DNA from: Nitrospirota bacterium
GTDB taxonomy: Bacteria > NPL-UPA2 > JAADIA01
DNA length: 64,000 nucleotides
Reading direction: 5' to 3'
Assembly: GCA_013151555.1 (NCBI GenBank)
Contig: JAADIA010000079.1
Location: forward strand, 1,699 to 65,698
Of this stretch, positions 31,527 to 64,000 are shown piece by piece. The position numbers and the translations under genes are program-made. The stretch's first letter is position 1; every line of letters begins with the position of its first letter. Under the pieces are notes generated by a model, which did not search any database, was not told the DNA's origin, and saw only the letters and a program-made list of their open reading frames with translations.

Positions 31527-33365
31527 TTGGTAAAATTTGCCGGGCAAAAGAGAACGGCAGTGACCTTGCTCCTGGCTATCGCCTTTACTGTCCCTTTAGC
31601 TGTCTACAGAGGAACCTCTAACCAGGTTTTGCTGAAGATTTCCCTGACCCAGCTTTTTCTTCTTCTGGGCTTTATTGTCTGGTCCGGCCGGGTGATCATA
31701 AAAAGAAAAGATTTAATTCTGCGAAGAAGTCCTTTAGACGGGCCCCTGCTCCTCTTTTTTTCTTTATCTCTTCTCTCCCTGTTCAATTCCCGCTACCGCT
31801 GGGCGGGAGGACCGGAAATCTATCGTCTCATTACTTACCTTCTGCTTTACGGAGTTAGCGTAAATATTCTGTGGGATAGACGGAATTTGAGCCGGCTCGT
31901 CTTCATCTGGTTGTTATCAACGGGTCTTGTCTCCCTCATTGGTCTCTATGAACATTTTTTTAAGGGCATGTCTCCTCCCCGTTCCACTTTTGGAAATGCT
32001 AATTTCTTTGCTGCTTACTTAGTTCTTCTCTTCCCTTTAACTCTGACTCTCTTCATCAGCAGTATCTTTAGTGGTTCCCGGCTCTCATTTAATAAAGAGG
32101 GGAGGCCGGAGGGTTTGAGGAGGAATTGGTTAAGAATCTCCTTTCTGGCGACCCTGTTACTGGTGATGACTCTTTCTCTTTTCTTGGCTTCTTCCCGCGG
32201 GGCCTGGTTAGGATTAAGCATTGGCCTGGTCTTCCTGGGTTGGCTCTTTTCCTGCCTCGGGACCGGCCGGCGCCGGTTAGCTACCCGGGTTATTCCTATT
32301 TTCCTGCTCCTTCTTCTTATCTTAACAGCTTTCTTTCTTCCCCGTCTCTTAGAAAAGAAATTCGTCCGGGAAGAATTAGAGAAAGGAACCCTGGGCATTC
32401 GGGTGCTTATCTGGGAGGGGACGGCAAAGATGATTGCTGCCCATCCTTTGCAAGGTTCCGGGATAGGAAGTTTTCAGGCGGCCTATCCTCGCTACCGGCT
32501 TCCCGAATATTTTGCTAATCCTCATGCCGTGGACTCTACCGCCCATGCTCATAACGAGTTCCTGGAAATAGCTGCGGAAACGGGAATTTTGGGTCTGCTT
32601 GCTTTTCTCTGGGTTCTAAGCGTTTTCTTTATAAAAGGAATAGATATAGTTAAAAGGGAAGAGGATAGATACAAACAGATTGTGGTTATGGGACTTATCT
32701 CCGGGGCGGCCGGCCTTTTGGTGACAAATTTAGTGGGAGTTAATCTTCGTTTTCCTTCCTCGGCTATCTTTCTCTGGTTGACTATGGGGATAACCATGAG
32801 CCAAATTCCCCTTACGGACCCTTATGGCCCCAGGCGGGTTGCCGGTTGGATTATTAAAACATCTCTTGTCTTCAGGGGAGCTATCTTCGGGTTGGTTCTT
32901 TTGCTGGTGGGGTTGGTTGGCTGGCAGGTGGTGGCTAAACCTTTCCTGGCAGATATGTATTTCCAGAAGGGAATTAATTACCGGAAAGCGGGAGATTGGG
33001 AAAAAGCTATCTCCGAGTACCAGAAGGCGGTTGAACTTGTCCCTTCCTTTATTCGGGTCTATTATCGCCAGGGATTTGCTTATGCTGTTATCGGTGATAT
33101 AGATAAAGCCATCTCTGCTTATAAGAAGGTGATAGACCTGGCTCCCGACTTCGCTCGTGTTCAGGCTAATATTGCTTTTCTCTATAAAGAGAAAGGGGAA
33201 CGGGATAAAGCCATCCGGGCTTATCAACGGGCTCTGGAGCTCAACCCGCGGGATCAGAAGAGTATTTATTATCTGAAGGAGATCTATGGTAATACCGGCC
33301 CGGACTCATTTTCTGGTGTAGAAATCAACCAGGATACGACCGTTAAGCCCGGGAAACCCTTTTGA
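31527..33365 (+). CDS. O-antigen ligase-like (Wzy_C) polytopic membrane protein with C-terminal TPR repeats
   Basis: About 10 predicted TM helices then TPR repeats (YRKAGDWEKAISEYQKAVEL...). The track start (GTG 31464) sits inside the terminator hairpin, so TTG 31527 after AAGGGAG is preferred. Confidence 0.55.
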   Translation: MVKFAGQKRTAVTLLLAIAFTVPLAVYRGTSNQVLLKISLTQLFLLLGFIVWSGRVIIKRKDLILRRSPLDGPLLLFFSLSLLSLFNSRYRWAGGPEIYRLITYLLLYGVSVNILWDRRNLSRLVFIWLLSTGLVSLIGLYEHFFKGMSPPRSTFGNANFFAAYLVLLFPLTLTLFISSIFSGSRLSFNKEGRPEGLRRNWLRISFLATLLLVMTLSLFLASSRGAWLGLSIGLVFLGWLFSCLGTGRRRLATRVIPIFLLLLLILTAFFLPRLLEKKFVREELEKGTLGIRVLIWEGTAKMIAAHPLQGSGIGSFQAAYPRYRLPEYFANPHAVDSTAHAHNEFLEIAAETGILGLLAFLWVLSVFFIKGIDIVKREEDRYKQIVVMGLISGAAGLLVTNLVGVNLRFPSSAIFLWLTMGITMSQIPLTDPYGPRRVAGWIIKTSLVFRGAIFGLVLLLVGLVGWQVVAKPFLADMYFQKGINYRKAGDWEKAISEYQKAVELVPSFIRVYYRQGFAYAVIGDIDKAISAYKKVIDLAPDFARVQANIAFLYKEKGERDKAIRAYQRALELNPRDQKSIYYLKEIYGNTGPDSFSGVEINQDTTVKPGKPF

Positions 33366-41621: not shown

Positions 41622-43127
41622 ATGACCGTAGGGAGCGGACTTGAAATGTCTCCCCTCCGCCAGCGATATTTCATCATAATTAGTTATGTGGGACTCCTGA
41701 TCTTAGGATTAGGAGGGATTCTCCTTATTCCTTTAGTCAGCCTTTTCTTTTCTCCGTCGGACATAAAGTACCTTAATAGCTTTCTCATCCCTTCCTTAGC
41801 TGCTATCGTCGGGGGATTTTTTCTCTGGAGGGGGTTCCGTTCGCGAGTAGAGGTTCCTCCTTTAACTGCTCCCGATGCAGCTCTCATCGTTACCTTTGTC
41901 TGGATAGCAGCCGTTATCCTGGGTGCGCTTCCCTTTATCCTCTCGCAGATATTAAGCCCTCTGGATGCTATCTTCGAGTCTATGAGCGGTTGGACAACTA
42001 CGGGTTTGACCATGGTTAATCCTGATAAGATTCCTTCCCTCTTCCTTTTCTGGAGGAGCCTCATGCAGTTTGTGGGAGGAGCGGGTCTAGCCGTAATTAT
42101 GCTCTCGGCCATCGTTGGCTCTTTAGGTCCCGGGGTCTATGAAGCAGAAGCCCGAAGTGACCATTTAGTTCCCCATGTGATGCATACGGCAAGAATGATC
42201 ATTAAAATCTATTTAGCTTATTATATCGTTGGAGTTGGCCTCTATTTTCTGGCGGGGATGAACTTTTTTGACTCTCTCAATCAGGCTATGTCCGGGTTAG
42301 CTACCGGCGGTTTTTCCACTCACTCGGAAAACATTGCTTACTGGAACAATCTCTCTATAGAGGCAGTAAGTCTGCTTCTCATGCTCTTGGGAACGACAAA
42401 TTTTGCTACTCACCATGTTCTCCTTTCCAGCCGGGGAAGGAAGGGTTTCAGAGATACGGAACTCAAACTAATGAGTTGGTTAATCATCGTAGTTACTCCC
42501 CTGATTGCCTTCAGTCTGTTCAAAACCATATTAGGAAACTTAGGAGATAGCTTCCGGAAAGGGTTGTTCCAGGTAGTCTCCGCCCTTTCGGGGACCGGTT
42601 ATTCAACGACTACTCTCAACAACTGGAGCGAATTTTCTCTTTTTCTCCTGATTATCTTGATGATTGTTGAGGGAGGAACCGGTTCTACTGCGGGGGGAAT
42701 AAAACTTTACCGGGCCGCTATTATTATTAAATCCATCTGGTGGTGGATCAAGAAACAGTTCTATCCTCCCTCTGTGGTTATACAAAGAGCTATCTGGAGA
42801 CGGGGGGAAAGACTGGAAGTTCAAGATAAGCATATTCAAGCGGTGACGGGTTTCATCGGACTTTATCTTCTTACCTATCTTGTAGGAGTGCTCATTTTTT
42901 TAGGGAGCGGTTTCTCCCTCCGTCAGTCCCTATTCGAGTTTGCTTCAGCTATAGGGACGGTAGGATTATCGTTGGGGATTACCCGCCCGGATATGCCTGT
43001 TACCGCCAAGGTGGCGGAGATCTTCGGGATGTGGTTGGGAAGACTGGAATTTATAGCTATCTTCCATGCTTTTATCCGAATTGGACGAGACCTGAAAGTA
43101 GGAAGAAATAGAAGAGGAAAAGAATGA
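41622..43127 (+). CDS. TrkH/KtrB-family K+ transporter membrane subunit
   Basis: 501 aa polytopic protein with repeated selectivity-filter-like GTTGLT / GLATGG / GGTGST / GLS motifs. Confidence 0.7.
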   Translation: MTVGSGLEMSPLRQRYFIIISYVGLLILGLGGILLIPLVSLFFSPSDIKYLNSFLIPSLAAIVGGFFLWRGFRSRVEVPPLTAPDAALIVTFVWIAAVILGALPFILSQILSPLDAIFESMSGWTTTGLTMVNPDKIPSLFLFWRSLMQFVGGAGLAVIMLSAIVGSLGPGVYEAEARSDHLVPHVMHTARMIIKIYLAYYIVGVGLYFLAGMNFFDSLNQAMSGLATGGFSTHSENIAYWNNLSIEAVSLLLMLLGTTNFATHHVLLSSRGRKGFRDTELKLMSWLIIVVTPLIAFSLFKTILGNLGDSFRKGLFQVVSALSGTGYSTTTLNNWSEFSLFLLIILMIVEGGTGSTAGGIKLYRAAIIIKSIWWWIKKQFYPPSVVIQRAIWRRGERLEVQDKHIQAVTGFIGLYLLTYLVGVLIFLGSGFSLRQSLFEFASAIGTVGLSLGITRPDMPVTAKVAEIFGMWLGRLEFIAIFHAFIRIGRDLKVGRNRRGKE

Positions 43128-44713
43128 ACGGTCCTAAGGAAGAACTCCGGACGGTAGTGGAACGGCTTAATCCTCAAACGAGATGCTTGCTGACGAGGAT
43201 GAAAGCCGGCGATGCTTATCTCCCTTCGCAGTTGCAAGAGCTGCTGGGGCAGGGAACTAAAGCCAGGGCTGTGGGGTCTGTGGGATGGTTGATTGCTAAT
43301 GGTTTAGCTGAGGAGACGGGTGAGGAGGACTCTAAAAGATATGTGTCGTTAGCCGATAAAGGACAGGCTTTTCAGGAAAAAGGAATTCCTGAAGGACGGA
43401 TAGTTAAGCTTTTGAAAGAAAAAGATAAGTTGACTATTCAAGAACTTGGAGAGAAGTTAGCTTTACCTAAAGAGGAATTGAATCCTATTCTTGGAACCAT
43501 GAAGAAGGAAAAAGTTATCTCATTTGAAAGCGGGGGGCGGGTGGCTTTGGGAGAAGAGGTAGCTATTAGGAAAGCAACCGAAAGGTACGGTAAGGTTAAT
43601 AATCTTTTAGACCGGGTGAAATCTGAAACAAGAGTGGATTTGCATGATATGCCTGAAGATGAAGAAGAAATTATTAAAGAGATGAGTCGGAAACGAGGTA
43701 AGGGTAAAGCTATCTTCCGCATAGTTCGAGCAGTAGAGATGAGATATAAACTAACCCCGAGAGGGAAAGAAGCTCAAGCCATATGTGGAGATATTAGGGA
43801 AGGCGAGGAGATAGGTTCTCTTACTCCCGAGATTCTGGAGAAAGGATTATGGCGGAACCGAACGTTCCGGAAATATGATATAGGCACCCGACCTCCCAAA
43901 TGGACTTACGGAAAGAAACATCCCTATGGACTCTTTCTGGATTTCGTGAGGAGAAAATTGGTAGCTATGGGTTTCGAAGAGATGAGAGGGCGGATGGTGG
44001 AGACTGAGTTTTGGAACAACGATGCCCTTTTTATGCCCCAGGACCATCCGGCCCGGGAAATACACGACGTCTATTTTGTTAAAGAACCTAAATACTCGCA
44101 AGAATTGCCTGAAGACTTAGTTGAGAAAGTAGCCAAGACCCATGAAACCGGCTGGAAGACCGGTTCTACCGGTTGGGGATATAAATTTGATAAAGAGAGA
44201 ACATCCCGTTTCGTTCTCAGGAGCCAGGGTACAGCTAACTCTGTTCGGATGTTGGCATCTCAACCCAAAATTCCGGGCAAATATTTTGCTATTGCCCGCT
44301 GCTTCCGTTACGATCAGGTAGATGCCACTCATGCTTCGGACTTTAATCAGATAGAGGGGATAGTTCTTTCCCGGGAGATGAATTTCCGGCACCTCTTGGG
44401 ACTTCTGAAACTTTTCGCTCTGGAGATAGCCGGCTCCAGTGAGGTTAGGTTTGTCCCTTCCTATTTCCCTTTTACGGAACCTTCCGTGGAGATCCAGTTC
44501 AAGCACAAAGAGCTTGGCTGGATGGAATTAGGAGGAGCAGGAATCTTCCGGAAAGAGGTTACTATTCCTTTAGGGATAGAAGTTCCGGTTATTGCCTGGG
44601 GGCTGGGTCTGGATAGGATGGCTATGGTAGCTCTCTCCCTTGACGACATCAGGGACCTCTTTACCTCTGACCTGGGGAAAGTGCAGGAGATGAAATTTAA
44701 GCAAAATATATAA
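43124..44713 (+). CDS. pheS: Phenylalanyl-tRNA synthetase alpha subunit, archaeal/eukaryotic type (long N-terminal winged-helix extension)
   Basis: 529 aa, against about 340 for bacterial-type PheS; class II motifs 2 and 3 in the C-terminal half (FRYDQVDATHASDFNQIEG, GWGLGLDRMAMV). Confidence 0.8.
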   Translation: MNGPKEELRTVVERLNPQTRCLLTRMKAGDAYLPSQLQELLGQGTKARAVGSVGWLIANGLAEETGEEDSKRYVSLADKGQAFQEKGIPEGRIVKLLKEKDKLTIQELGEKLALPKEELNPILGTMKKEKVISFESGGRVALGEEVAIRKATERYGKVNNLLDRVKSETRVDLHDMPEDEEEIIKEMSRKRGKGKAIFRIVRAVEMRYKLTPRGKEAQAICGDIREGEEIGSLTPEILEKGLWRNRTFRKYDIGTRPPKWTYGKKHPYGLFLDFVRRKLVAMGFEEMRGRMVETEFWNNDALFMPQDHPAREIHDVYFVKEPKYSQELPEDLVEKVAKTHETGWKTGSTGWGYKFDKERTSRFVLRSQGTANSVRMLASQPKIPGKYFAIARCFRYDQVDATHASDFNQIEGIVLSREMNFRHLLGLLKLFALEIAGSSEVRFVPSYFPFTEPSVEIQFKHKELGWMELGGAGIFRKEVTIPLGIEVPVIAWGLGLDRMAMVALSLDDIRDLFTSDLGKVQEMKFKQNI

Positions 44714-44738
44714 GTTTGCTACCTCCTTCGGAAGTTAA

Positions 44739-44824
44739 GACTATAGACTATAGACCATAGACTAAACGAGGGGAAAAGGGATGGTGAAAAGTCTAAAGTC
44801 TGATGTCTATGGTCTATTGTCTGA
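44739..44824. repeat. Inverted tandem-unit element (unit CTATAGA) between pheS and pheT
   Basis: gactatagactatagaccatagactaaa at 44739-44766; inverted agtctaaagtctgatgtctatggtctattgtctga at 44790-44824. Confidence 0.6.
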
Positions 44825-44849
44825 ATTGAGTTCTTGAAAAGAGGTAAGA

Positions 44850-46508
44850 ATGCCAACTATTGAAATAAGAAAAACGGATTTTGATAAGTTCCTGAAGCCC
44901 ATAATAGAAGAACAGGGAAGAGGACGGGAAGAGACTCTTTCTCGCATTAAGGGAGAGATAAAAGGCGAGGATAACGATTGCTATAAGATAGAAATAGCCG
45001 ATACCAACAGGCCGGATCTCTTCACTGTTGAAGGTATTGCCAGAGAACTTCTGGGGATTTTCAAAGAGGAAAAGTTTAAGGATGATTTTCTGAATGAAAG
45101 TCCGAAATATAAGATAGAGGTCCTGGAATCCGTGCGGGAGGTAAGACCTTTTGTAGGAGCTCTGGTTGTCAGGAACTTAACTGTTGATGAAGATACTCTG
45201 CATTCTTTAATAAGCATCCAGGAAAAACTGGGTGAGACCCTGGGGAAAAGGAGAAAGAGGGTTGCCATTGGTGTTTATGAAGCCGGTTCCATCGAATTCC
45301 CGGTACGATACGGAGCTTTTGATCCTCAATCTTATAAGTTTGTTCCCCTGGAGTTCTCCGAAGAGATGACTTTGGATGAGGTTTTGAGGAAACATCCTAA
45401 AGGTATTGAATATGGGCATTTGTTGAAAGGTTGCCAAGGTTATCCTCTTCTCCTCGATGCTAACCGGAGAGTTCTTTCCCTCCCTCCCATCGTCAATAGC
45501 CGGGAAATGGGAGAGGTAAGGCCGGGAGCGAACCATCTCTTCGTGGAAGCAACAGGGACAGACCAGAAGGCGGTTATTCTGGCCTTAAATATTATCTCTT
45601 CCGCTCTCTCTCTCCGGGGAGGGACCATAGAAAGATGTGAGACGGTTTATCCCTACGCGACTCCCCTGGGAGAAAATCAGGTGACTCCCAGGCAAATGAA
45701 CAAGGCGTTGAGGGTAGATATGGAGGAGCTGAAACAGCTACTGGGTATCGATATTAGTCGGCAAGAGGCAGCTGATTGTCTAAGGCGATTAGGATATGAA
45801 ATCCAGGGGCAAGGAGAGAAATTCCAGGCCCTCGCCCCCTATTACCGTAGCGATGGTATGCATGAACACGATATAATAGAAGATATAGCTATAGTGAAAG
45901 GTTATGAGAACTTCTCTCCTCTACCTTTAAGCGATTTCACTATAGGAGGGTTATCCAGGGAACAGGAGATAGTGGATAAAGTAAGGGAGATTCTCGTCGG
46001 GATGGGATTTCAGGAGATAATATCTAACGCCTTGGTGAATCGGAGGGAACTCTCTCAGCGGATGAGATGTGAGACCGAGGCCATCGAAGTAGATAACGTG
46101 ATGACTGAGACCTACTCTGTATTGAGAAGTTGGCTTATTCCCTGCCTGCTCAAAGTGGAGAGGGAAAGTTCTCAGGTGGAATATCCTCATAAGGTCTTTG
46201 AAGTGGGTGAGGTGGTTGTCAAGGAAAATGGGCCCAGGGAAGAGATAAGACTGGCCGTTCTCATCTCGAGCGGAGAATTCGGTTTCACCGATATCCACCG
46301 GATATTGGAAAGCCTGATGGAGGAATTATCCTATCCTTATCATCTGAAAGAAGCTTGTCATAGTTCATTTATAGAAGGCCGTTTCGGTGAAATAGAGAGT
46401 GGACATAAGTCTGTGGGAATCATTGGCGAAGTACATCCGGAGGTCTTATCTAACTGGGCTGTCAAAATGCCTGTTTCCGCATTTGAGCTTAGGATTTACC
46501 CCTATTAA
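44850..46508 (+). CDS. pheT: Phenylalanyl-tRNA synthetase beta subunit, archaeal/eukaryotic type (short form)
   Basis: 552 aa, against about 800 for bacterial PheT; B3/B4 and B5 regions recognisable; no tRNA-binding N-terminal OB domain. Confidence 0.75.
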   Translation: MPTIEIRKTDFDKFLKPIIEEQGRGREETLSRIKGEIKGEDNDCYKIEIADTNRPDLFTVEGIARELLGIFKEEKFKDDFLNESPKYKIEVLESVREVRPFVGALVVRNLTVDEDTLHSLISIQEKLGETLGKRRKRVAIGVYEAGSIEFPVRYGAFDPQSYKFVPLEFSEEMTLDEVLRKHPKGIEYGHLLKGCQGYPLLLDANRRVLSLPPIVNSREMGEVRPGANHLFVEATGTDQKAVILALNIISSALSLRGGTIERCETVYPYATPLGENQVTPRQMNKALRVDMEELKQLLGIDISRQEAADCLRRLGYEIQGQGEKFQALAPYYRSDGMHEHDIIEDIAIVKGYENFSPLPLSDFTIGGLSREQEIVDKVREILVGMGFQEIISNALVNRRELSQRMRCETEAIEVDNVMTETYSVLRSWLIPCLLKVERESSQVEYPHKVFEVGEVVVKENGPREEIRLAVLISSGEFGFTDIHRILESLMEELSYPYHLKEACHSSFIEGRFGEIESGHKSVGIIGEVHPEVLSNWAVKMPVSAFELRIYPY

Positions 46509-52195: not shown

Positions 52196-52957
52196 ATGGG
52201 CGAAAATAATAAAGTGACAGATTTGCAGAAACAGAGGGGATGGGTTCGTTTAGAATGTCGAGTTCCTGTCCATTATCGAATTGATTCTGAGAAGACTCTT
52301 AAGGCAGGACTGGCCCGGGACATAGGCGAAGGAGGAGTAAAATTCGAAGCTGACAGGCGGGTTCCTCCTCAAACTATTTTGTGGTTAGCAATACAGTTGC
52401 CTGTATATATTAAGCCCCTTAAGACAAAAGCTGAAGTAGTTTCTGTTTGTGAAACAGGGACTGTCGGCAGTTATGAGATTGGAGTCCGGTTTTTAGATAT
52501 GGGGAAAACTGCCAGAAGTCGGATTGCCCGCTATATAGATGAGATAACGAGCGAGGTTGAAGGAGAAGAAGATATAGATGAAACAACCATAGAAGGACTT
52601 AAAGAAAGAGAGGTTTTAACTGTACCCGATATCCGGCAGGTGGAGGTGAAGGAAGAAAAAGAGCCGGATGTCTCTGCTTTAATCAAAGAGATAGAAGCTT
52701 TGGAAATGATTGTCGATGAAGAAGGTGGAACCTGTCAACTGGGGAAATTAGCTACTCTCTCTTGTCGTACTCTTAAAGGTTGCCCTCCTTTGATGCTGGG
52801 AATTAAGTTTCGGGAAGCAGTAGGCAAACCTCTTCTTAAGAAATATGGTTTAGATGAAAAAGAAGGGAAGAAGGTTATGGAAAGATGTAAGAAAAAATTC
52901 AGGGCTTTGGGGACTAAGTATTATATCCGTGCCCTGAGAAAATCTAATGAAGTTTAG
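52196..52957 (+). CDS. PilZ-domain protein with a Cys-containing C-terminal domain of unknown function
   Basis: N-terminal c-di-GMP-binding motifs (QRGWVRLECR = RxxxR; ARDIGEGGVKF = DxSxGG-like); acidic linker; C-terminal about 110 aa with CQLG...CRTLKGC... Confidence 0.55.
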   Translation: MGENNKVTDLQKQRGWVRLECRVPVHYRIDSEKTLKAGLARDIGEGGVKFEADRRVPPQTILWLAIQLPVYIKPLKTKAEVVSVCETGTVGSYEIGVRFLDMGKTARSRIARYIDEITSEVEGEEDIDETTIEGLKEREVLTVPDIRQVEVKEEKEPDVSALIKEIEALEMIVDEEGGTCQLGKLATLSCRTLKGCPPLMLGIKFREAVGKPLLKKYGLDEKEGKKVMERCKKKFRALGTKYYIRALRKSNEV

Positions 52958-53100: not shown

Positions 53101-54633
53101 ATGTTATCTCAAACCTATTCGGCCTCCCTGCTGGGTCTGGAAGCTTATCCGGTTGAGATAGAGGTGGATGTAGCCGCCGGTCTTCCTGCCGTAATCGTAG
53201 TGGGGTTGCCTGATGCGACAGTAAGAGAAAGTAAAGACCGGATAAAATCCGCTATAAAGAATAGCCGTTTTAAGTATCCAACCAAAAGAATTACTGTAAA
53301 TCTTGCTCCTGCCGATGTGAAAAAGGAAGGTCCTTCTTTTGATTTACCTATTGCCCTGGGACTGTTAGCTGCTACGGGTCAACTTTCTCCTGAGCGTCTG
53401 AAAGATTACCTTATCCTGGGAGAACTGGCTCTGGATGGTCGGGTTCGCCCTATCAAGGGAGCCCTTCCCATCGCCCTCAGCCTGAGGAAAGAAACCCGGA
53501 GAGGAATAATTCTTCCCCGGGAGAACGCTGCCGAGGCCGCGGTCATTGAAGATATTGAGATTTATGGGGTAGGGAGCCTTGCGGAGGCGGTTAAATTCAT
53601 AAACGGAGAGGCGCGAATTACTCCCCATAAAGTAAATTTAGATGATATTTTCAGTGACTTATTATCTGATTGTGAAGTCGACTTTGCCGAGGTTAAAGGT
53701 CAATTTTCCGTAAAAAGAGCTCTGGAGATCGCTGCTGCCGGTTCTCATAATGTTTTGATGATCGGTCCTCCCGGGGCGGGAAAGACCATGTTGGCCAGAA
53801 GGCTTCCCACGATTATTCCGAATATGAGTCTGGAGGAGGCCTTGGAGACTACTCAAATTCATAGCGTGGCAGGACTTCTTCCCTCGAAACGGGCTTTGGT
53901 CACCCGGCGCCCTTTTCGCTCGCCTCATCATACCTCTTCCGATATCGCTCTCGTGGGAGGGGGGACAATTCCTAAACCCGGAGAGGTAAGCTTGGCTCAT
54001 AATGGAGTACTTTTTTTAGATGAATTGCCGGAATTTCACCGGCAAGCTCTCGAGGTTCTCCGGCAGCCTCTTGAAGATGGATCCGTTACCATATCCCGGG
54101 TGAACAGAACATTAACCTTTCCTTCCCGGATATTGCTTATCTCTACTATGAATCCCTGCCCCTGTGGTCATCTTGGTGATGAAGTAGAATGTCATTGCAC
54201 CTCTTATCAAATTCAGCGTTATCGTTCCCGTATCTCCGGTCCTCTTCTGGACAGGATAGATATTCATATTGAAACTCCTGCTTTGAAATATAAGGAGCTT
54301 GCCGGTGAGCAACTTGGTGAGTCTTCGGAAAAGGTGAGGAAGAGAGTGACGGGTGCTCGGGATATCCAGGAAAAAAGGTTTAAGGGGGAGAAAATATACG
54401 GTAACGCTTACATGAATCAGAAACAGATGAGGAGATATTGCCGTCTGGACGATGAGGGAAAAGAGCTTCTCAAAATGGCCATGAGTGAATTGGGAATATC
54501 CGCCCGGGCTTACGATAAAATACTCAAAGTAGCCAGAACGATTGCCGATTTAGCAGCCTCGGAGGATATCCAAGCTGAGCACCTCTCCGAAGCTATCCAG
54601 TACAGGAGCTTGGATAGGAATTTGTTAGCTTAA
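53101..54633 (+). CDS. YifB/ComM-family Mg-chelatase-like AAA+ ATPase
   Basis: 510 aa; N-terminal Lon-like domain, Walker [10 protein letters not shown]-terminal Zn-ribbon-like [14 protein letters not shown] typical of YifB. Confidence 0.85.
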
Positions 54634-57212: not shown

Positions 57213-57524
57213 CTTTTATTCTCCTTTCATTTACTCAGAAACTACTAACCTGATATCTTCATCCCCAAAGAATTTACCTCCTCACCTGTCAGATTAACAA
57301 AGCGTTCAGCTTTCATGCTATGTTTATCAGATTCGTGCTACTTCAAGAGAAAAAAATATCGCTTACATTATACTCTTTCCTATTATATACCAGCTCTCTC
57401 TGGCGATACTCCGAAGCGAACTATCCGCGACATGAACATTCTCCTGTGTTACGATTTTAAGAATAATAACACGACAGTTAAATCCTGTCAAGTTTTTTTG
57501 AAATACAAATAGGAATTTGTTAGC

Positions 57525-58826
57525 TTAATCCTCATTCTTCCTTCTTTCCATCATCTTCTCTCCTTCCTTTGTTACCGTCTCGATATTTCCTTCCGTCAGG
57601 ATGCGCGGAGTGATAAAGATGAGCAGTTCTATCTTCTCGTTGGTCTTCTTGGTGTGACGAAAAGCAAATCCCAAGATAGGAATATCTCCCAGGAAAGGAA
57701 CCTTCTTCGCTGTATTTTTATTATTATCTGTTAGCAGTCCTCCGAGAATAATTGTCTGACCGTTTTTAACCCGAACCTGAGTCTCCGCTTCCCGGGTATC
57801 AATTATCGGTTGAGGGTCAGTGGTCTCCGTCCATCCGGTAAGCTGGTCTATTTTAGGGTGTATCTTCATTTTGATGAAACCCGTAGGGGTAATCTGGGGA
57901 GTGACTTCCAGGGTAATCCCGGCTTTTCTAAACTCCACCTCCTCGGTGACAATGGGAATGCCGGATTCGTAAGAGGTTACTGTCTTTACATAAGGTATCT
58001 GTTTGAGTACTTTTATAGTGGCCTGTTCGCCATCCATCGTGGCTACCCGGGGGGCGGAAAGCAAGTTGGCCTTTCCCTCGTTTATCATAGCCTGTAGTCC
58101 GGCGGTGATATGGTTGTTGCCGGCCGTAAGGTTAAAAACATTCGTGGATGCCGACAGGGACTGGCTCACCGTGCCCGTAAGGCCTGACCAGCCGGAGAAG
58201 TCGGGATCTGCCCAGGTCCAGTTTATACCTAACTCTTGTTCTCTATCCAGGTTAATCTCCACTATCTTGGCTTCGATCATTACCTGCCGCTGACCAAGGT
58301 CGATCATCTGCACATATTGGCTGATTCTATCTACATTCTCGGGGAAGTCAACTACCATCAGGGAATTTTGTTCCTTGTTGACTACTATTTTCCCTTCCCC
58401 GGAAAGGAATTTGGTTAGCTGTGCTTCCAGTCCTTCCCCGGAAGCAGATTCCAGGATGAAAGTTCGACTAACCAGTTGAGGTTTGCTAACTATTCGAATA
58501 ATATTATCTTCCTTAATATAAGAATACCCCAGATTTTTTAGAATCGCATCGAGAGCATCCCAGACGGTAACATTGGTAAAACTAACACTAACCGTTCCTT
58601 TCACATCTTCACCGGGAATAATATTTAGTTTTTCCTCTTTGGCTAACAACCTGAGCAGGTCTTGGATGTCCGCATTTCGGAATTCCATGGAGAATCGCTT
58701 CGGCGAGGACCCCATTTCCTTTTCTTTGCCGGGGTCAGCAAGGGAAACCCTTATAGTAGCAGAAAGAAATAATCCTAAAATAAGCAAAAAGAAGAGAAGG
58801 TAACTCTTTCCTTTTAATGTGAACAT
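57525..58826 (-). CDS. pilQ: Type IV pilus / T2SS-family secretin (PilQ-like, short form)
   Basis: Signal peptide, N-domains, C-terminal secretin domain (GGLLTDNNKNTAKKVPFLGDIPILGFAFRH). Confidence 0.75.
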   Translation of the reverse strand: MFTLKGKSYLLFFLLILGLFLSATIRVSLADPGKEKEMGSSPKRFSMEFRNADIQDLLRLLAKEEKLNIIPGEDVKGTVSVSFTNVTVWDALDAILKNLGYSYIKEDNIIRIVSKPQLVSRTFILESASGEGLEAQLTKFLSGEGKIVVNKEQNSLMVVDFPENVDRISQYVQMIDLGQRQVMIEAKIVEINLDREQELGINWTWADPDFSGWSGLTGTVSQSLSASTNVFNLTAGNNHITAGLQAMINEGKANLLSAPRVATMDGEQATIKVLKQIPYVKTVTSYESGIPIVTEEVEFRKAGITLEVTPQITPTGFIKMKIHPKIDQLTGWTETTDPQPIIDTREAETQVRVKNGQTIILGGLLTDNNKNTAKKVPFLGDIPILGFAFRHTKKTNEKIELLIFITPRILTEGNIETVTKEGEKMMERRKNED

Positions 58827-58835
58827 TTTTTTACC

Positions 58836-59390
58836 TCACTTTTTCTCTTCCTCGTTAAGGTTTGTTTCCTGGGGGACTATTATTCCTAACTGAAGAATAA
58901 AAGTCTCTTTTTCTTTGCCCAGGATAACTTTCTCAGGCATAATCTTTATTACTTTTACTTTCCCCCCTGCCAGGGTATCTCCTTCCTTAACAATCTCATG
59001 ATTAATAATGGCAAGGGAACTCGTATCGCTGAAGAGAATAGCGGTTAGAGACCATTCATTTTCTTTCTGCTTATTCTCTGGAGTCTCAATTGTGGGAGTC
59101 TTCTCTTCGGAAGGAGATGTCAGGAAGAAACTTTTCCCCAACTTCTCTTCGCCGGAGAGGAGAAAAGGATTTCTTCCCCAGAAGGGACTCAAAGGTTCTT
59201 TCTTCGCCGGGAGAGAATCTTTTCCTATCCGGGGCCGGGGTTTAACGAGATTAAGTGTTTCTTCTGCTGCTTTTGTCGCCGGGGAGAGGTTTTTCATCCT
59301 CTTCCTTTGAGAGAAGAATCTTATGTTATAAATGACTATAAGGCTTAAAACTATAGCCATAATGATGATAAAAATCTTATTTTTTAACAA
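58836..59390 (-). CDS. pilP: PilP-like pilus assembly lipoprotein/periplasmic protein
   Basis: N-terminal TM, RNPF motif (resembling the K/RDPF motif that binds PilN/O), C-terminal beta domain. Confidence 0.55.
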   Translation of the reverse strand: MLKNKIFIIIMAIVLSLIVIYNIRFFSQRKRMKNLSPATKAAEETLNLVKPRPRIGKDSLPAKKEPLSPFWGRNPFLLSGEEKLGKSFFLTSPSEEKTPTIETPENKQKENEWSLTAILFSDTSSLAIINHEIVKEGDTLAGGKVKVIKIMPEKVILGKEKETFILQLGIIVPQETNLNEEEKK

Positions 59391-59394
59391 GATT

Positions 59395-60117
59395 CTATCT
59401 CCTCAAACTTTCTTTTGTCTTTTCCTGGCTCTGAGGCCGGAGATAATAAGCATTAACATGGATTATTGCTTTTATCAAAGGAATGGTTTCTTCTACCCTT
59501 TGAAGGTTAAGGCTATTTACCGTAAAGAGACGATTGCTGCGAGGAATCTCTTCCAGGAATTTAGCTAAAGATTGGTATTTTCCCTTTGCTTTTACTGTGA
59601 TAGGTATCCGATAACAATTGAAGGAAGTTTTCCTCTTGACTTCTGACTTATTTAAGGCACTTCCTTCTTTTGAAAGTTCTCCCGGTGAGGCGGGCGGACT
59701 TGCTCTGTCCGGGGCAGGTGGATTCATGTCGGGTGGAGCAGATTCTGTTTTTTCATCTTGGAAGGAGATTAACTGTTCTTTTTCCGTGGAGAGCGAAAGT
59801 TCATCTATTTTTGCTTCCTTAGCCAACCGGCGCAGTTCATCTAATAACTGGGGAATTTGTTGTTCCCGGGGAATTCTTGCTCTTATAGCAACCATCTTCA
59901 GTTCGATGACGGAGCTTTCTTTTTCATATTTATCCACTTTTGGTATTGCCAGAGAAGCTTTTTCTAAACGAGCCTGGATATTCTGTAGAGCTTGCTTCGT
60001 TTTAGAAATTTCTTTTATCCGGGGGCGAAATGCCAGGAAATAGAAAAAGGAGAGAGAGAGAAGAATGATACTAACGGTGATAAATAATTCTTTTCGCTCC
60101 CAATTGCCTGCTTTCAT
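59395..60117 (-). CDS. pilO: PilO-like bitopic pilus assembly protein
   Basis: Single TM, coiled coil, C-terminal ferredoxin-like region; positioned between pilN and pilP. Confidence 0.55.
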   Translation of the reverse strand: MKAGNWERKELFITVSIILLSLSFFYFLAFRPRIKEISKTKQALQNIQARLEKASLAIPKVDKYEKESSVIELKMVAIRARIPREQQIPQLLDELRRLAKEAKIDELSLSTEKEQLISFQDEKTESAPPDMNPPAPDRASPPASPGELSKEGSALNKSEVKRKTSFNCYRIPITVKAKGKYQSLAKFLEEIPRSNRLFTVNSLNLQRVEETIPLIKAIIHVNAYYLRPQSQEKTKESLRR

Positions 60118-60168
60118 TATAATTATCCCCTCTCGTCAAATCATAACTTGTAATTGATAACTCGTGAC

Positions 60169-61914
60169 TTATAAATTAAGTAAACATCTTATCGTAAAGG
60201 ACATTGTCTTCTTCGGCTCTTCTGTTTCTAAAACCGAGGGACCTTCCTCCTGAAGGGGTTCAAGGACGACTTCCTTCAAGAAAGCCGATTTCTTTAAATT
60301 GCTTAGTAAAACTGCCAGAGGTCCTCGCCATCCTGAGGTTCCTTCTTTAAGGATTTCTCCCCGAATTGTTAGTTGCCAATTCCGGCCGGTTCTTGAATCT
60401 TCTTCTATAATGGATACTTCTCTTAAGAAAATTTTCTTTGGAACAGTATTGCTCAGGTCTTGTAAAATAAGAGACCAGGGAGGACTTCCCTTTGTAATCC
60501 TTTCTATTAGCCCAACTTCTTTCTGGCGAATCCGTTCTTTCTTTTCAAAAACTTCATATTTTGTTATTAGCGGTTTCATCTGAAGTAATCGTTCCTCTTG
60601 ATTAGCTAAAAGCTGATGATAAGATCTGGAAGTGGTGTCCAATCCCCAGTAAGTAAGGAAAAGAAGAGTAACCAGGGCCAGACCGGATATTCCCAAAGAT
60701 ATTCTCTTAGCAATTCTTTGAGCTCTTTCCTGAATTTCCTCCGGCAGGAGATTTACCCGTTTTCTTTTTCTCGGATTTTTTTCGATAGCTAAACCAATCG
60801 CTGTTGTTAAGACTGACGGAGAGGAGGGAAGGTCGTCAAGAAGCTCTTTTCGCACAGAGACTAATTGGAGAGGGTCGAATTCTTCTACTTCCATCCTCAG
60901 ATTATCTGAAAGAACTTCAGCGATAGTCTTAATATCCTCACTATCTTCACTAAGGAGTATTTTCTCTACCGTTTCTCCCCGGAACTGCTGTTTGTAGTAA
61001 AGAAACGATCGGTCAAGTTCGACCCTTACCCGGCTCAGGAAAATTTCCAGGTTCTCTCTGCCGGGGATCTGGATTGTCCGGGACACATAAAGTTGGTCGT
61101 CTTTACAGATATTTACGGTAACGGTAGAGCCCTTTATCTCTACTAAGGCAATAGCTTTATCTTTCCTTGCCAAACTTGTCTTTTGCCACAAGTTATAGAA
61201 AGCAATCTGGCTAGTGCTGATGGCTGTGGGGAAAATTCCGCATTCTTTCATTAAAGCAAGATAATGCCTCATTCCCGTCTTGGAAGTCATTATTAAAAGA
61301 ATATTCTGTTTGGGGATTCCTTTCTGGGAAATTTCTCCCAGGGAAAGATAGCTCACTATCGTATCTTCGTAAGGGACGGTTGAATGTTGTTTAACTTCCC
61401 GTTGCAGGGCATTGTGGAGCTCTTTCTTAGGCATAAGGGGAAAAGTAAGCAAGGCATGGTTTATTAAGTTTCCCGGGATGGTCACGATAACATTCTTAGG
61501 ATTTATCCCGCTGGTTTGAAGGACCTTTTTAATAGTTTTGATTACCTCTTTTTCTCTTTCCCCTTCCTTCTGGCGGGAGAGGGAAGCCATCCCGAATTTA
61601 TCTAATCTTGCTCCGGTGGGGGTATATACCAGTTCAACCATAACTACTTTATCGGCAGTGATATCCAGAGCGGTGACTCTTCGGGATATTCCCAGTATTT
61701 TCCCAACGCTTATGCCGGAAAGAGTGATAAAGGAAGCAACGTCAGGCACTTTCTCTTTTACTGCTTTGGGAGATACGACTTTTTTTTGCTCTTTATCCGG
61801 TTCCGGGGAGGCTGTTTCCGGGGCAGGAGTCGGTTCTTCCGGTTTTACCGGTTTGGGCACGGTGGTACTTTTAAATATGGGACTATCTTTCAGAGAAAAT
61901 TTTTTCGCGGCCAT
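60169..61914 (-). CDS. pilMN: Fused PilM (actin-like ATPase fold) - PilN protein with about 100-aa Pro/Lys-rich N-terminal extension
   Basis: Central PilM-like domain; C-terminal third starts with the PilN signature VNLLPEE followed by a TM helix. Confidence 0.65.
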   Translation of the reverse strand: MAAKKFSLKDSPIFKSTTVPKPVKPEEPTPAPETASPEPDKEQKKVVSPKAVKEKVPDVASFITLSGISVGKILGISRRVTALDITADKVVMVELVYTPTGARLDKFGMASLSRQKEGEREKEVIKTIKKVLQTSGINPKNVIVTIPGNLINHALLTFPLMPKKELHNALQREVKQHSTVPYEDTIVSYLSLGEISQKGIPKQNILLIMTSKTGMRHYLALMKECGIFPTAISTSQIAFYNLWQKTSLARKDKAIALVEIKGSTVTVNICKDDQLYVSRTIQIPGRENLEIFLSRVRVELDRSFLYYKQQFRGETVEKILLSEDSEDIKTIAEVLSDNLRMEVEEFDPLQLVSVRKELLDDLPSSPSVLTTAIGLAIEKNPRKRKRVNLLPEEIQERAQRIAKRISLGISGLALVTLLFLTYWGLDTTSRSYHQLLANQEERLLQMKPLITKYEVFEKKERIRQKEVGLIERITKGSPPWSLILQDLSNTVPKKIFLREVSIIEEDSRTGRNWQLTIRGEILKEGTSGWRGPLAVLLSNLKKSAFLKEVVLEPLQEEGPSVLETEEPKKTMSFTIRCLLNL

Positions 61915-61936
61915 CTTTTTAAATTCCTTACCTTGC

Positions 61937-62707
61937 TTATCTTATTTTATTGAGAAACTCGTTAGCTAATGCTAAATAGTTCCTTGCTCCTACACAAACG
62001 GGATCGTACTGGAATATTGTCTGTCTCTTTGCCGGAGATTCCTTAAGGCGAACATTTGTCCGGATCATCGTTTCGTAAAGTAACCCTCCGAAGTTTATTT
62101 TCAAAAGGTTAATTGCTTCCTCCGAGATGTTTTCCCGGGAATCGTATTTGGTGATTACCAGCCCGAGCACTTCTACCTTACTGCCCAGGTTTTCCTGAGA
62201 AATTTTTATGGTATCGAACAAGAGATTAAGTCCAACCAGGGAAAGGAAATCGGAGAAAACAGGTATCAATACGTAATCAGCAGCAACAAAAGAATTTACA
62301 GTGAGTAAGCTCAGAGAGGGAGCCGTATCTATAAAAATATAATCATACTGTTCCATGATTTCAGGCGTAAAACTTCGTTTTAAAGCGAACTCTCTGCCAT
62401 ATTCCTGAATTAATTGAATTTCTGCTCCTGCCAGATGCAGGTTACTGGGAGCCAGGTCTAAATTCTCGGTAGAGGTATGTTCAATAATAGCAGATATCTT
62501 TTCATCCTTATTTACCAGGACCTTATACATCGAAGGATTTTCCTCGGAGATATTCTTCGATAGCATGTAGGAAGCATTTCCCTGAGGGTCCATATCGATA
62601 ACCAGTACCCGCTGACCGCGGATGGAAAGGGCCGCTCCCAGGTTTACCGTTAAAATGGTCTTTCCTACCCCGCCTTTCTCATTAGCTACAGTAATTATCT
62701 TTCCCAT
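61937..62707 (-). CDS. ParA/MinD-family P-loop ATPase
   Basis: Deviant Walker A KGGVGKT; DMDPQGNAS; 256 aa. Confidence 0.8.
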   Translation of the reverse strand: MGKIITVANEKGGVGKTILTVNLGAALSIRGQRVLVIDMDPQGNASYMLSKNISEENPSMYKVLVNKDEKISAIIEHTSTENLDLAPSNLHLAGAEIQLIQEYGREFALKRSFTPEIMEQYDYIFIDTAPSLSLLTVNSFVAADYVLIPVFSDFLSLVGLNLLFDTIKISQENLGSKVEVLGLVITKYDSRENISEEAINLLKINFGGLLYETMIRTNVRLKESPAKRQTIFQYDPVCVGARNYLALANEFLNKIR

Positions 62708-62828
62708 CTTATCACCTCCCCTTAAGGATGATTATTTGCCTCGAAAATCTAAACTACAGAGCTTGTAAAGGAAAAAATCTCGAATCTGGAAATCTTCAAA
62801 TTCTAAGAAAAGCCGCATCCTCTTGAGA

Positions 62829-63059
62829 TTAGTTTTTTTTCTTGTGAGCAGTTGCATAGTTCTTTTTATCTAAGAAATAGTTGGTTTTCCTGACGATAGC
62901 TATTATCTGGTTGATTTCCTTAGCGGTATAAATTCTCCAACCTCTTGAATCTCTCTTTACGGAGGGAATGTATCCTTTTTTCTCCCAGCGTTTAATAGTT
63001 AAGGGGCTCCTATCAATACGAAGGGCCAGATCGCTGATCCTATAGGTTGGTCCAGCCAT
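62829..63059 (-). CDS. Small MerR-superfamily HTH DNA-binding protein (excisionase/HTH_17-like)
   Basis: 76 aa; YRISDLALRIDRSPLTIKRWEKKGYIP...GWRIY pattern. Confidence 0.55.
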   Translation of the reverse strand: MAGPTYRISDLALRIDRSPLTIKRWEKKGYIPSVKRDSRGWRIYTAKEINQIIAIVRKTNYFLDKKNYATAHKKKN

Positions 63060-63311
63060 AACAAGCTCCTTTTCTAATATGGTTTGATATAGGTGATATA
63101 TATGACATATTGAATTTTACCCAAAACGGGATTATTTGTCAAGTAAAAAAATAAAAAATATTATGGGATTGGAAAAATTGATAGAATTGAAAAAGAAAAC
63201 AAAGTGCGATATGAATGAAAGAAAGCTATAGGGCTTGCAGTATGTTTTGAGAAGACTTTATAGGCAATGAAGAATTTGTCAATAAGATTGCCCCCGAATT
63301 TTTCCTTAGGA

Positions 63312-64000
63312 TCAATGGGGGCCGATGTCGTCGGCTGTATCTTGAGTGCCATCCGGACCAATACTGATAAACTGATTAGCGCCGGTTTTCTTTACATAAT
63401 TATTTCCCCACTCGTCACTCTGGTAAGTTACTCCGATGTAAGCGGGAACTAAATCGCTAATCTGGGTAGGATAACTGTTTCCCGGTACATTATCATATTC
63501 TTCAGCAGCGGCATTAACTTTATCCAGCTCATCCCGGACCCGTTCTTTTCGTTCCCTGATCATATTGTAGCTGATAACCCGGATAAGGTCGTTGTTGTAA
63601 TCCAGACTGGTCCCGGAGTTGCTATCATCCTGACCATTGTGTCCGTAACTATAAAGCAAGATACTATTTGGAGTTGAGCCCCCGGTAGTGTCATAGGAAG
63701 GATCGTAATAATAGCTTTTTTGCCAGGCATCTTTTGTATAATCGTCGTTAGGTTGAGTAGTCATGTAAGGACCGTCCCACCCGCTCACGCCCGGATCAGT
63801 GTTAAGATCAGCCAGGGTAGAAGGAAGTTCTGTAGTATCCTGGTAGTACATATTTATAGCCGTTTCTATATTTCCCATCTCTTCCCGGGTGGCTTCCTTT
63901 CCCTTTATTCGCAATGAGGTCCCAATAAGAGGAATAGCAATGCCTGCCATCAGGGCAAGGATAGCAACCATAACAACAACTTCGATTAAGCTGAAGCCTC
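63312..64000 (-). CDS. GspG-like major pseudopilin / type IV pilin with large internal insertion (N-terminus beyond window end)
   Basis: Upstream in-frame sequence reads GFSLIEVVVMVAILALMAGIAIP (class III signal). WDGPY and C-terminal DEWGNNY...GPDGTQDTADDI resemble GspG; the remaining positions are not GspG-like. Confidence 0.65.
   Translation of the reverse strand, partial: GFSLIEVVVMVAILALMAGIAIPLIGTSLRIKGKEATREEMGNIETAINMYYQDTTELPSTLADLNTDPGVSGWDGPYMTTQPNDDYTKDAWQKSYYYDPSYDTTGGSTPNSILLYSYGHNGQDDSNSGTSLDYNNDLIRVISYNMIRERKERVRDELDKVNAAAEEYDNVPGNSYPTQISDLVPAYIGVTYQSDEWGNNYVKKTGANQFISIGPDGTQDTADDIGPH

Follow-up and report, generated by a model that had tools for sequence, protein, structure and literature searches.

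A ParA-type ATPase and a portable N-terminal peptide in a Nitrospirota pilus/secretin gene cluster: a putative positioning system for a trans-envelope machine

We describe a gene cluster on the minus strand of a 64,000-nucleotide stretch of DNA (hereafter the window) from a Nitrospirota bacterium (contig JAADIA010000079.1), in which a ParA-type ATPase is encoded among components of a pilus/secretin machine, and in which a short peptide at the start of a PilM-PilN fusion protein may tie the two together. An open-reading-frame listing combined with Pfam and NCBIfam profile searches places seven closely spaced open reading frames (ORFs) between positions 57525 and 64000, in the minus-strand order pseudopilin, MerR-like helix-turn-helix (HTH) protein, parA, pilM-pilN fusion, pilO, PilP/GspB-like gene and short PilQ secretin gene; this is the order given in an initial annotation of the same DNA, and it is borne out by the ORFs and their family assignments. 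From parA to the secretin gene the cluster is tightly packed, with intergenic gaps of 4-51 nt, and a gap of 121 nt, in which no terminator-like site occurs, separates parA from the merR-like gene upstream of it. The PilM-PilN protein has an identical match in NOX97693.1, from a 70,406-bp contig of a Nitrospirota metagenome-assembled genome (MAG). The features of the cluster, in minus-strand order, are as follows.

63312..64000 and beyond the window end, minus strand: GspG-like pseudopilin (Pfam T2SSG, E 5e-11, residues 35-127).
63114..63142, minus strand: sigma-70-like promoter TTGACA-17 nt-TAAAAT (11/12 consensus positions, the best match in 57300-64000).
63085..63102, minus strand: TATATATCA-CCTATATCA, a tandem 9-bp direct repeat that follows the -10 box and precedes the merR start codon, a putative operator for the MerR-like protein.
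62829..63059, minus strand: MerR-like winged-HTH (wHTH) protein of 76 amino acids (aa), putative autoregulator (Pfam MerR_1 PF13411, 33.5 bits, cut-off 21.6).
61937..62707, minus strand: ParA-type (Soj-like) deviant Walker A ATPase of 256 aa (AAA_31 180 bits, cut-off 27; CbiA 87.9 bits, cut-off 25.4).
61873..61914, minus strand: MAAKKFSLKDSPIF, the tag at the N-terminus of PilM-PilN, which may bind ParA and activate its ATPase and whose motif is shared by the partners of the ParA family.
60169..61914, minus strand: PilM-PilN fusion of 581 aa (PilM_2 52.4 bits, E 5e-14; PilN 26.5 bits, E 6.5e-6; TIGR01175 73.8 bits).
59395..60117, minus strand: PilO with GspM-like features (Pfam PilO 46.4 bits, T2SSM_b 27.1 bits).
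58836..59390, minus strand: PilP/GspB/GspC-like bitopic protein of 184 aa (T2SSB 25.4 bits, below the cut-off of 28.4).
57525..58826, minus strand: short PilQ-type secretin of 433 aa (TIGR02515 PilQ 287.8, cut-off 284.35).

The ATPase carries a deviant Walker A motif with its signature lysine (NEKGGVGKT, residues 9-17), aligns over its full length with the structure of the chromosomal ParA of Myxococcus xanthus (8RAY, E 2e-49), and has its closest characterized relatives, at ~44% identity, among chromosomal ParA/Soj proteins. Its C-terminus (...ANEFLNKIR) is Soj-like and lacks the amphipathic membrane helix of MinD-type proteins, and no CpaE/TadZ model in Pfam or NCBIfam matches it. By these alignments the protein is of the ParA/Soj type, and of neither the MinD nor the TadZ/CpaE type, so that the initial label of a ParA/MinD-type ATPase stands for the ParA family and falls for MinD, and the analogy then drawn with TadZ/CpaE fails on the difference of subfamily. 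Residues were mapped from M. xanthus onto the window protein through the 8RAY alignment, allowing for a chain offset of 19, which was verified on D60A, the substitution of the 8RAY construct (D60, window D40). The cleft positions V116, L150, L152, L155 and L187 map to window I97, L132, L134, V137 and I169, and L192 maps to window residue L174; all six are hydrophobic, and four of the six are invariant or nearly so in the family. The DNA-binding arginine R238, mutated in the ParA-R238E (ParA*) variant (PMC12462528), maps to R220. Both the DNA-binding arginine and the ParB-type pocket of chromosomal ParA are conserved, and the window protein is predicted to bind DNA.

Searched against 5.8 billion proteins, the window ParA returned ~100 clusters at 58-96% identity, and the next matches lay at 49% or below; one such outgroup match, 47% identical, belongs to a textbook jag-mnmE-gidA-gidB-parA-parB locus. 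Judged by this gap, the family is a sharply bounded, separate clade with pairwise identities of at least 58-60%, apart from canonical gidAB-parA-parB loci. Neither a ParB domain (ParB_N/HTH_ParB) in the sizeable ORFs nor a gidAB context was found in the window, which bears on the condition that the initial annotation named as refuting, a grouping of the protein with chromosome-partition Soj and a nearby parB: there is no parB in the window and the protein falls in a clade of its own. On PLSDB plasmids no ParA reaches 60% identity, the best match being a Soj-like protein at 43.7%, so a plasmid origin is undocumented among cultured plasmids.

To place the ATPase in its gene neighborhoods, 179 loci around ParA relatives (referred to here by L numbers) were collected and analyzed by script. 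Among family loci with visible flanks, a gene for a MerR-like protein of 69-76 aa lies 9-125 nt upstream of parA in all except L172 and L173, where pilin genes occupy that position. On the other side of parA, the next gene starts 2-25 nt past the stop codon and, in 31/31 family loci with downstream sequence, its product begins M-x-[KRQ][KR]-[FY]-S-L-K-[DN]-[NS]-P-I-F. Both the MerR-like gene and this tag are missing from ~140 of ~140 loci whose ParA is 43% identical or less. The presence of the family's conserved partner peptide at the N-terminus of PilM-PilN is the link that the initial annotation overlooked; the 64-kb window holds no other match to the motif, and 0 are expected by chance. 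In several loci (L002, L006, L007) the tagged start had been missed by gene callers, and full ORFs were recovered. Species-representative genomes yielded a single ParA-family locus, in an Entotheonellaceae MAG (L008), and a contig scan using PilM-PilN alone yielded no relative.

The tagged proteins are of four types, which follow the relatedness of their ParA. Type 1 partners (60-67% ParA clade; 376-537 aa) consist of the tag, a long disordered region, a HTH_36/Phage_rep_O-like winged helix and a conserved C-terminal domain, and come from the Candidatus Entotheonellaceae MAG, from matches named Tectomicrobia and from soil metagenomes. Type 2 partners (79% ParA clade; L001/L088, L168-171; 203-211 aa) consist of the tag, a basic segment, one transmembrane (TM) helix, an acidic Pro-rich linker and a T2SSB-like homology-region domain; in L168 and L170 the order is merR, parA, tagged GspB-like gene and a gene for a 440-aa secretin, followed by a convergent T2SSG pseudopilin. 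In type 3 (89% ParA clade; L172/L173) two pilin genes precede parA, which is followed by a gene for a 262-aa protein combining the tag with a PilN-like TM region and a homology-region domain, and then by a convergent comM. Type 4 comprises the window and L174, where tag, linker, PilM and PilN form one protein and are followed by pilO, a pilP-like gene and a secretin gene. Within the lineage of the window, then, ParA proteins of 78-97% identity occur in four arrangements with pilus or secretin components, and relatives keep ParA at this position. The initial proposal of a pilus- or type II secretion system (T2SS)-like machine with its own positioning ATPase and dedicated regulator is supported, having come through both of the refuting conditions named with it (relatives keep ParA, and the window has no parB), and the machine may well be of this kind.

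Two of these types invite closer description. In L172 the tagged protein (1595-2383) matches window PilM-PilN residues 4-65 over its residues 2-66, PilM-PilN residues 383-472 over its residues 42-131 (the PilN motif and TM helix, 51% identity), and the window PilP-like protein over its residues 60-249 (40% identity), and it looks like a composite of the two window proteins. The locus has comM directly after the tagged gene, and no PilM, PilO, secretin or cbiMNQO there. In both L172 (822-860) and L173 (695-730), from two independent metagenomes, the parA start codon is ACG in place of ATG at the same position, behind a good Shine-Dalgarno sequence; gene callers chose a GTG further inside the gene, a start that would cost the Walker A motif its KGG, and the remaining ORF is intact and 89% identical to window ParA. 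L168 and L169, for their part, share the same ParA protein and identical merR, parA and tagged GspB-like genes and differ directly after the tagged gene, L170 resembling L168, which points to a strain-level rearrangement right after that gene.

The sole feature common to the tagged proteins is that each is encoded directly after a ParA of this family. Since their bodies are otherwise unrelated (wHTH, bitopic GspB/PilP-like, and PilM-PilN), the tag is, to judge from these alignments, portable. It exists in 17 distinct DNA versions, in which F/S/L/K/P/I/F are invariant or nearly so and the codons vary (TCN and AGY for Ser; TTR and CTN for Leu), and this synonymous variation indicates selection on the peptide, and not on an RNA or DNA element. 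Segment by segment, the PilM-PilN proteins of the window and of locus L174 are identical at 21/22 positions of the tag (95%), at 46% of the adjacent linker, at 74% of PilM and at 61% of PilN. The tag lies on the cytoplasmic side in all partner types: PilM is cytoplasmic, and the bitopic partners carry a net charge of +8 to +10 on the N-side of their single TM helix, the positively charged side, from which we place their tag in the cytoplasm.

The same comparison bears on the whole cluster. Between the window and L174, ParA is 97% identical, ComM 87%, the secretin 79%, PilMN 67%, PilO 60% and the PilP-like protein 58%; parA is the most constrained gene of the cluster, with 85 synonymous and 7 non-synonymous codon differences. 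These figures argue against a decaying passenger and for a dedicated, machine-linked function. They accordingly weigh on the proposal that merR-parA is the remnant of a plasmid or integrative-element partition module which landed here by chance, leaving a functionless fusion scar as the PilM-PilN peptide. Such an origin would suit the type 1 loci, which often lie among integrases, transposases and toxin-antitoxin genes and have a wHTH partner, and would suit the MerR-like gene, which has a separate promoter and stands 121 nt ahead of parA. Yet a scar would hardly keep 21/22 residues beside a linker at 46%, parA is under strong purifying selection, and the association with pili and secretins recurs in four arrangements and on three tagged proteins. 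Moreover, no mobile-element genes were found within the 64-kb window, the remainder of which is housekeeping chromosome (thrS, infC, trkAH, pheST, ffh, trmD, rnhB, comM, cbiMNQO-like and pyr genes, and an ileS-type synthetase). We consider a chance remnant very improbable. The partition-like module offered as an alternative in the initial annotation survives as ancestry, in view of the merR-parA-peptide arrangement with wHTH proteins in Entotheonellaceae-type loci, and falls as a stray insertion.

Partners of ParA/MinD ATPases generally contact the ATPase through a charged, disordered N-terminus, the remaining protein being or binding the cargo (PMC10241942; PMC11407121). The M. xanthus ParB motif has a central Arg/Lys flanked by hydrophobic residues (L11, R13, L15, L18, I19), Lys being central in about half of ParBs; it binds the ParA hydrophobic pocket V116/L150/L152/L155/L187/L192 and activates the ATPase together with DNA (PMC12462528). 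The N-terminus of the canonical ParB from the nearest outgroup, MAKKTGLGKGLDALF, and the consensus of the family tag, MAKKFSLKDNPIF, share three elements at differing spacing: a pair of basic residues, a Lys at the center and a pair of hydrophobic residues at the end. The tag resembles a ParB-type motif which has diverged and is matched to a likewise diverged ParA, and is most likely a ParA-binding, ATPase-activating peptide. A 45-aa profile of the tag, run against 5.8 billion proteins, matched only five fragments, all short and frameshifted, and missed the protein of the window itself, and so provides no catalog of tagged cargos, and a degenerate DNA pattern for the tag found no match in IMG/VR viral contigs.

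Some type 1 wHTH partners also hold 1-4 additional, internal tag-like cores in their disordered regions (LTVKDR, LSVKNR, MSVKNR and LTLKIR, compared with FSLKDN at the N-terminus), the loci concerned being L002:10778-12385, L004:10779-12191, L006:3241-4824, L092 and L094. Such cores are far commoner than in shuffled sequences (0/500 shuffles reach the observed count), by a pattern chosen post hoc, and may provide multivalent contacts with ParA.

On another reading this ATPase would serve, alone or beside another, to segregate the organism's chromosome, and the tagged proteins would do no more than regulate it, for example by linking segregation to landmarks of the envelope. Its nearest characterized relatives are indeed chromosomal, and polar scaffolds which sequester ParA are known (PMC12462528). 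Against this, the window offers neither parB nor gidAB context, the family pairs with its own tag and not with the GLG[KR]GL motif of ParB type, and the partner in other phyla is a wHTH protein, not ParB; we hold a role in segregation to be the least probable of the readings weighed here.

The proteins of the machine itself fit a pilus or T2SS-like assembly to differing degrees, and the domain scores of PilM, PilN and PilO all exceed their cut-offs. In PilM-PilN, the tag (1-22) and a Pro/Lys-rich linker (23-78) precede PilM_2 (from residue 83), the VNLLP motif, a TM helix (405-425) and the periplasmic PilN domain (483-577); the PilN motif is retained as RVNLLPEE ahead of the TM helix located by a transmembrane scan, and no T2SSL match was found in Pfam or NCBIfam. 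The fusion and its Pro/Lys-rich N-terminal extension are as first annotated, the extension being ~80 aa and not 100. The 184-aa protein has a C-terminal homology-region domain, a weak GspC match and no PilP Pfam match (PF04351). It is homologous to the tagged partners of relatives, at 40% identity in L172 (E 5e-37), where the homologue exceeds the T2SSB cut-off at 29.2 bits, and at 32% in L168 (E 5e-19). The initial call of PilP is read here as a PilP/GspB-like protein at that position. The call of a short secretin is confirmed by the PilQ model: the protein comprises Secretin (177.9 bits), N0/STN and one N1 (Secretin_N) domain, without AMIN domains, and scores 233.7 bits with TIGR02517 GspD (cut-off 351.35).

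The pseudopilin shows a class III signal, G/FSLIE, at the window edge. Its T2SSG match spans model positions 12-99 of 108 and contains WDGPY...KDAWQKSYYY at canonical spacing, and it scores 52.5 bits with TIGR01710 GspG (cut-off 88.85). The insertion which the initial annotation placed between the WDGPY and DEWGN.Y blocks is instead a C-terminal extension of ~100 aa after a complete T2SSG domain (window 63315-63614, minus strand), ending in a GspG-like block, DEWGNNY...SIGPDGTQDTADDIG. This C-terminal half has no Pfam match and no BLASTP similarity to the first half, and a tandem duplication of the GspG domain is accordingly unsupported. As GspG and GspD fall below their cut-offs and GspL is not matched, equivalog-level assignment to a T2SS does not apply.

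Scores of 189-195 bits with HofQ DNA-uptake porin models raise a further reading of the cluster, in which ParA would tether chromosomal or incoming DNA near the secretin channel of a DNA uptake or export pseudopilus, rather than position a machine. The pseudopilin is GspG/ComG-like, the partner in the ancestral module is a DNA-binding protein, and comM is the convergent neighbor of the parA-pilus cluster in L172 (2404-2685) and L174 (5461-6990); in the window it lies at 53101-54633, 3 kb from the cluster, with only cbiMNQO-like genes between. This adjacency may be mere common synteny or a hint of a DNA-handling machine. However, the HofQ scores are far under the cut-offs of 554-598 and PilQ is the sole model above threshold, no com-specific genes were seen, and the position of comM possibly reflects only a neighborhood common to close relatives, so that we find DNA handling distinctly improbable.

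Upstream of parA, the initial call of a MerR-like HTH is sustained by the MerR_1 score. The protein lacks a coiled-coil dimerization helix or effector domain, as do its counterparts in the family, and is 54-64% identical to the products of genes directly upstream of family parA. Profile searches of the PDB returned the HTH domains of MerR, CarH and CadR, and weakly RacA and BldC (BldC E 0.21); with the BldC model NF033787 it scores 14.3 bits (cut-off 77). A single-sequence AlphaFold2 model is of low confidence (mean pLDDT 61.7), and its beta-alpha-alpha-beta-beta-alpha secondary structure fits a wHTH. The -35 block of its promoter, TTTTTnCTTGACA, is conserved in distant family loci. In Entotheonellaceae-type loci the CCTATATCA repeat occurs in 2-4 copies at -56/-47/-38 from the merR start, in surrounding DNA that cannot be aligned with that of Nitrospirota. 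A degenerate pattern of two repeat units has a single match in each of 13 loci, and every one of these matches lies between the -10 box and the merR start. L172 and L173, the only family loci without the MerR-like gene, also lack the repeat. The layout of a classic MerR operator is not seen here: the spacer is 17 bp (compared with 19-20 bp) and the tandem repeat lies downstream of the -10 box. A palindromic MerR-type operator was considered and rejected, as only weak inverted repeats are present and the conserved element is a direct repeat. BldC is a truncated MerR-like protein which binds direct repeats head-to-tail (PMC5859096), and the simplest reading is that the MerR-like protein would autorepress by binding the 9-bp repeats in this manner. 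In partition-type loci the repeats may also be a centromere-like site. We note that the HTH protein matches the RepA model TIGR03453 at positions 48-88 (E 0.022) and ParA matches it at 105-356 (E 5e-29); the match is too weak to claim that the pair is a split type Ia ParA, in which the operon is autoregulated by an N-terminal HTH, and serves as a lead only.

Taken together, the gene content, the conserved triad and its synteny, the portability of the tag and the amino-acid-level selection upon it, and the pocket and DNA-binding residue of ParA were observed directly; from comparative genomics and homology we infer binding of the tag to ParA, stimulation of the ATPase, the nucleoid as matrix and positioning as outcome. 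We favor, as somewhat probable, the reading that the merR-like gene, parA and the PilM-PilN tag form one module, a positioning system of the ParA/MinD family with the pilus/secretin machine as its cargo. ParA would bind ATP, dimerize and sit on the nucleoid, and each PilM-PilN subunit of a cytoplasmic ring would display MAAKKFSLKDSPIF on a flexible linker of ~55 aa. The tag would enter the hydrophobic cleft that lies at the ParA dimer's edge, as the N-terminal motif of ParB does, and would stimulate ATP hydrolysis. Repeated binding and release along the nucleoid could then set where, or whether, the inner-membrane platform settles and, via PilN/PilO and the PilP-like protein, where the secretin is placed. 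In sister lineages the tag sits directly on the membrane-anchored GspB/PilP-like protein encoded beside the secretin, which suggests that the common cargo is the secretin-linked alignment complex. The homology-region domain of GspC/GspB/PilP binds the N0 domain of secretins in the architecture of T2SS and type IV pili. A tag on the bitopic proteins of types 2 and 3 would consequently link ParA across the inner membrane to the secretin, and in type 4 the link would run through PilM-PilN, PilO and the PilP-like protein. The MerR-like protein would bind the tandem 9-bp repeats downstream of its own promoter and autoregulate the module, which may derive from a partition-type system whose tag sat on a winged-helix DNA-binding protein. 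As to what the module achieves, it could space the machines evenly over the nucleoid, keep them out of nucleoid-free poles or confine them there, license assembly, or tether DNA to an uptake machine.

Several observations weigh against this reading. The hydrophobic residues are spaced differently around the central Lys, at F-3, L-1, I+4 and F+5 in the tag and at L-2, L+2, L+5 and I+6 in ParB. A complex that spans the envelope and docks to an outer-membrane secretin may move too little for a ratchet driven by the nucleoid. L169, with a ParA and tagged partner identical to those of L168, has a PhoU-family gene in place of the secretin gene downstream, and L172 has no nearby secretin. The pilus-linked cases come from one narrow uncultured lineage (ParA at least 78% identical), and represent few independent events, as three tagged protein types. 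Domain searches of the sizeable ORFs across the 64-kb window found none of the motor/platform genes pilB, pilC and pilT, and the machine may be a type IVa pilus (T4aP), a competence pseudopilus or T2SS-like. Finally, the operator is assigned by conservation, in a setting where chance alone would yield about 3 single 9-mers with one mismatch per 14 kb.

The cargo, a membrane- and cell-wall-embedded machine, also lends itself to a different account, in which ParA is an assembly or licensing hub at the membrane or pole, as are TadZ/CpaE and FlhG, and recruits or gates PilM-PilN without nucleoid matrix or ratchet. TadZ/CpaE, the only pilus-associated members of the superfamily described, work as polar hubs (PMC11407121), and the pairing of tag and ParA fits recruitment equally. 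The window protein is nevertheless of the single-domain, 256-aa ParA/Soj type, without receiver-like domain or MinD-type C-terminal amphipathic helix; R220 and the ParB-type pocket are conserved, and its nearest outgroup is chromosomal ParA. We regard a polar or membrane hub as unlikely, albeit the strongest of the alternatives considered. Returning to nucleoid-based positioning, a broader proposal, over which we are evenly divided, is that the [KR][KR]FSLKDNPIF tag defines an undescribed ParA clade that is re-targeted by moving the tag (it sits on partition- or replication-like wHTH DNA-binding proteins in Entotheonellaceae-type loci, and on PilM-PilN or GspB/PilP-like proteins in Nitrospirota), such that a nucleoid-based motor organizes a trans-envelope machine.

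Elsewhere in the window, the gene just upstream of comM, at 52196-52957 on the plus strand, encodes a 253-aa PilZ-domain protein (E 7.5e-11) and lies a few kb away from the cluster's secretin end. A second type IV pilin-like gene (N_methyl + DUF1559/SBP_bac_10) lies 25 kb from the cluster at 30703-31284, plus strand, and is followed at 31464-33365, plus strand, by a gene for a 633-aa Wzy_C (O-antigen ligase-like) protein with TPR repeats; the two may be a pilin and pilin-glycosylation enzyme pair. The phenylalanyl-tRNA synthetase subunits (43124-46508, plus strand) exceed the cut-offs of archaeal-type models (PheS PRK04172, 564 bits; pheT_arch, 497 bits), and not of bacterial ones. Archaeal-type PheST is unusual in a bacterium, though known from a few lineages.

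The placement of pili and secretins is known in few models only, through polar hubs, FimV/HubP, peptidoglycan binding and TadZ/CpaE. The cargos described for ParA-type ATPases are DNA, carboxysomes, chemoreceptor arrays, flagella, the divisome and conjugation machinery (PMC11407121). If the present interpretation is true, envelope-spanning pilus/secretin machines would join the cargos of the ParA/MinD family as a new class, and the clade would provide a natural example of cargo swapping through peptide grafting. The same ATPase, 11-residue tag and small regulator on three unrelated cargo proteins constitute an unusually clean natural experiment, and the rule that the tag assigns the cargo is directly testable with peptides and could be exploited in the design of minimal positioning systems. 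The kind of mechanism, ParA-type positioning by way of an N-terminal partner peptide, is already known; what would be new is the class of cargo, the defined portable tag and the dedicated small regulator. The cluster suggests that a cell may use a DNA-segregation motor to place an envelope machine. Our searches of the open-access literature turned up no ParA-type ATPase described as coupled to PilMNOPQ-type or GspB/secretin components, and no account of this tag or of the merR-parA-tag triad, which is no proof of novelty.

Among known systems, the ParA-ParB pair of M. xanthus (8RAY; PMC12462528) is nearest to the window ATPase in fold, length, deviant Walker A motif, DNA-binding Arg and hydrophobic partner pocket. 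As in chromosomal ParA-ParB systems generally, the partner is encoded immediately downstream and begins with a basic pair and hydrophobic residues around a central Lys/Arg. Unlike them, the window system has no ParB, parS or CTPase, its motif is FSLKDNPIF and not LG[RK]GLxALI, a subunit of an envelope machine (in other phyla a wHTH protein) serves as its partner, and an extra MerR-like gene lies upstream; identity of the window family to Soj-type ParA is only ~44-49%, and the two fall in separate clades.

The machine shares PilM, PilN, PilO, a homology-region protein and a PilQ-type secretin, in canonical order, with the PilMNOPQ set of T4aP and with GspL-GspM-GspC(GspB)-GspD, and its PilM-PilN fusion mimics the architecture of GspL. 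It departs from T4aP in the fusion of PilM-PilN with a tagged extension of 80 aa, in a short secretin without AMIN domains, in a T2SSB/GspC-like protein at the position of PilP, and in the ParA and MerR-like genes between pseudopilin and pilMN. The regulator recalls BldC and other truncated MerR-like or Xis-like wHTH proteins in consisting only of a ~70-aa MerR-type wHTH and in its association with tandem direct repeats rather than a palindrome (PMC5859096), a resemblance of architecture only; its sequence scores far under the BldC cut-off, its gene is tied to parA, and its DNA binding is putative.

A 2024 review of the family names TadZ/CpaE, BcsQ and VirC1 as its only pilus- or secretion-related members (PMC11407121). 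Like the window ATPase, TadZ/CpaE is a ParA/MinD-superfamily member inside a type IV filament cluster, and is thought to localize the secretion apparatus. It differs in being MinD-like, with an N-terminal receiver-like domain and an atypical ATPase domain, and in acting as a polar hub within Tad loci (CpaF, TadBC, RcpA), whereas the window protein has a single domain and lies in a PilMNOPQ-type cluster. With respect to the positioning systems McdA/McdB (carboxysomes), ParC/PpfA (chemoreceptor arrays) and PomZ/PomXY (divisome), the cargo proposed here, a trans-envelope type IV pilus/secretin machine, is absent from the cargos described; and, in contrast to all three, the tag of the present family is part of the machine itself and has moved between three different proteins.

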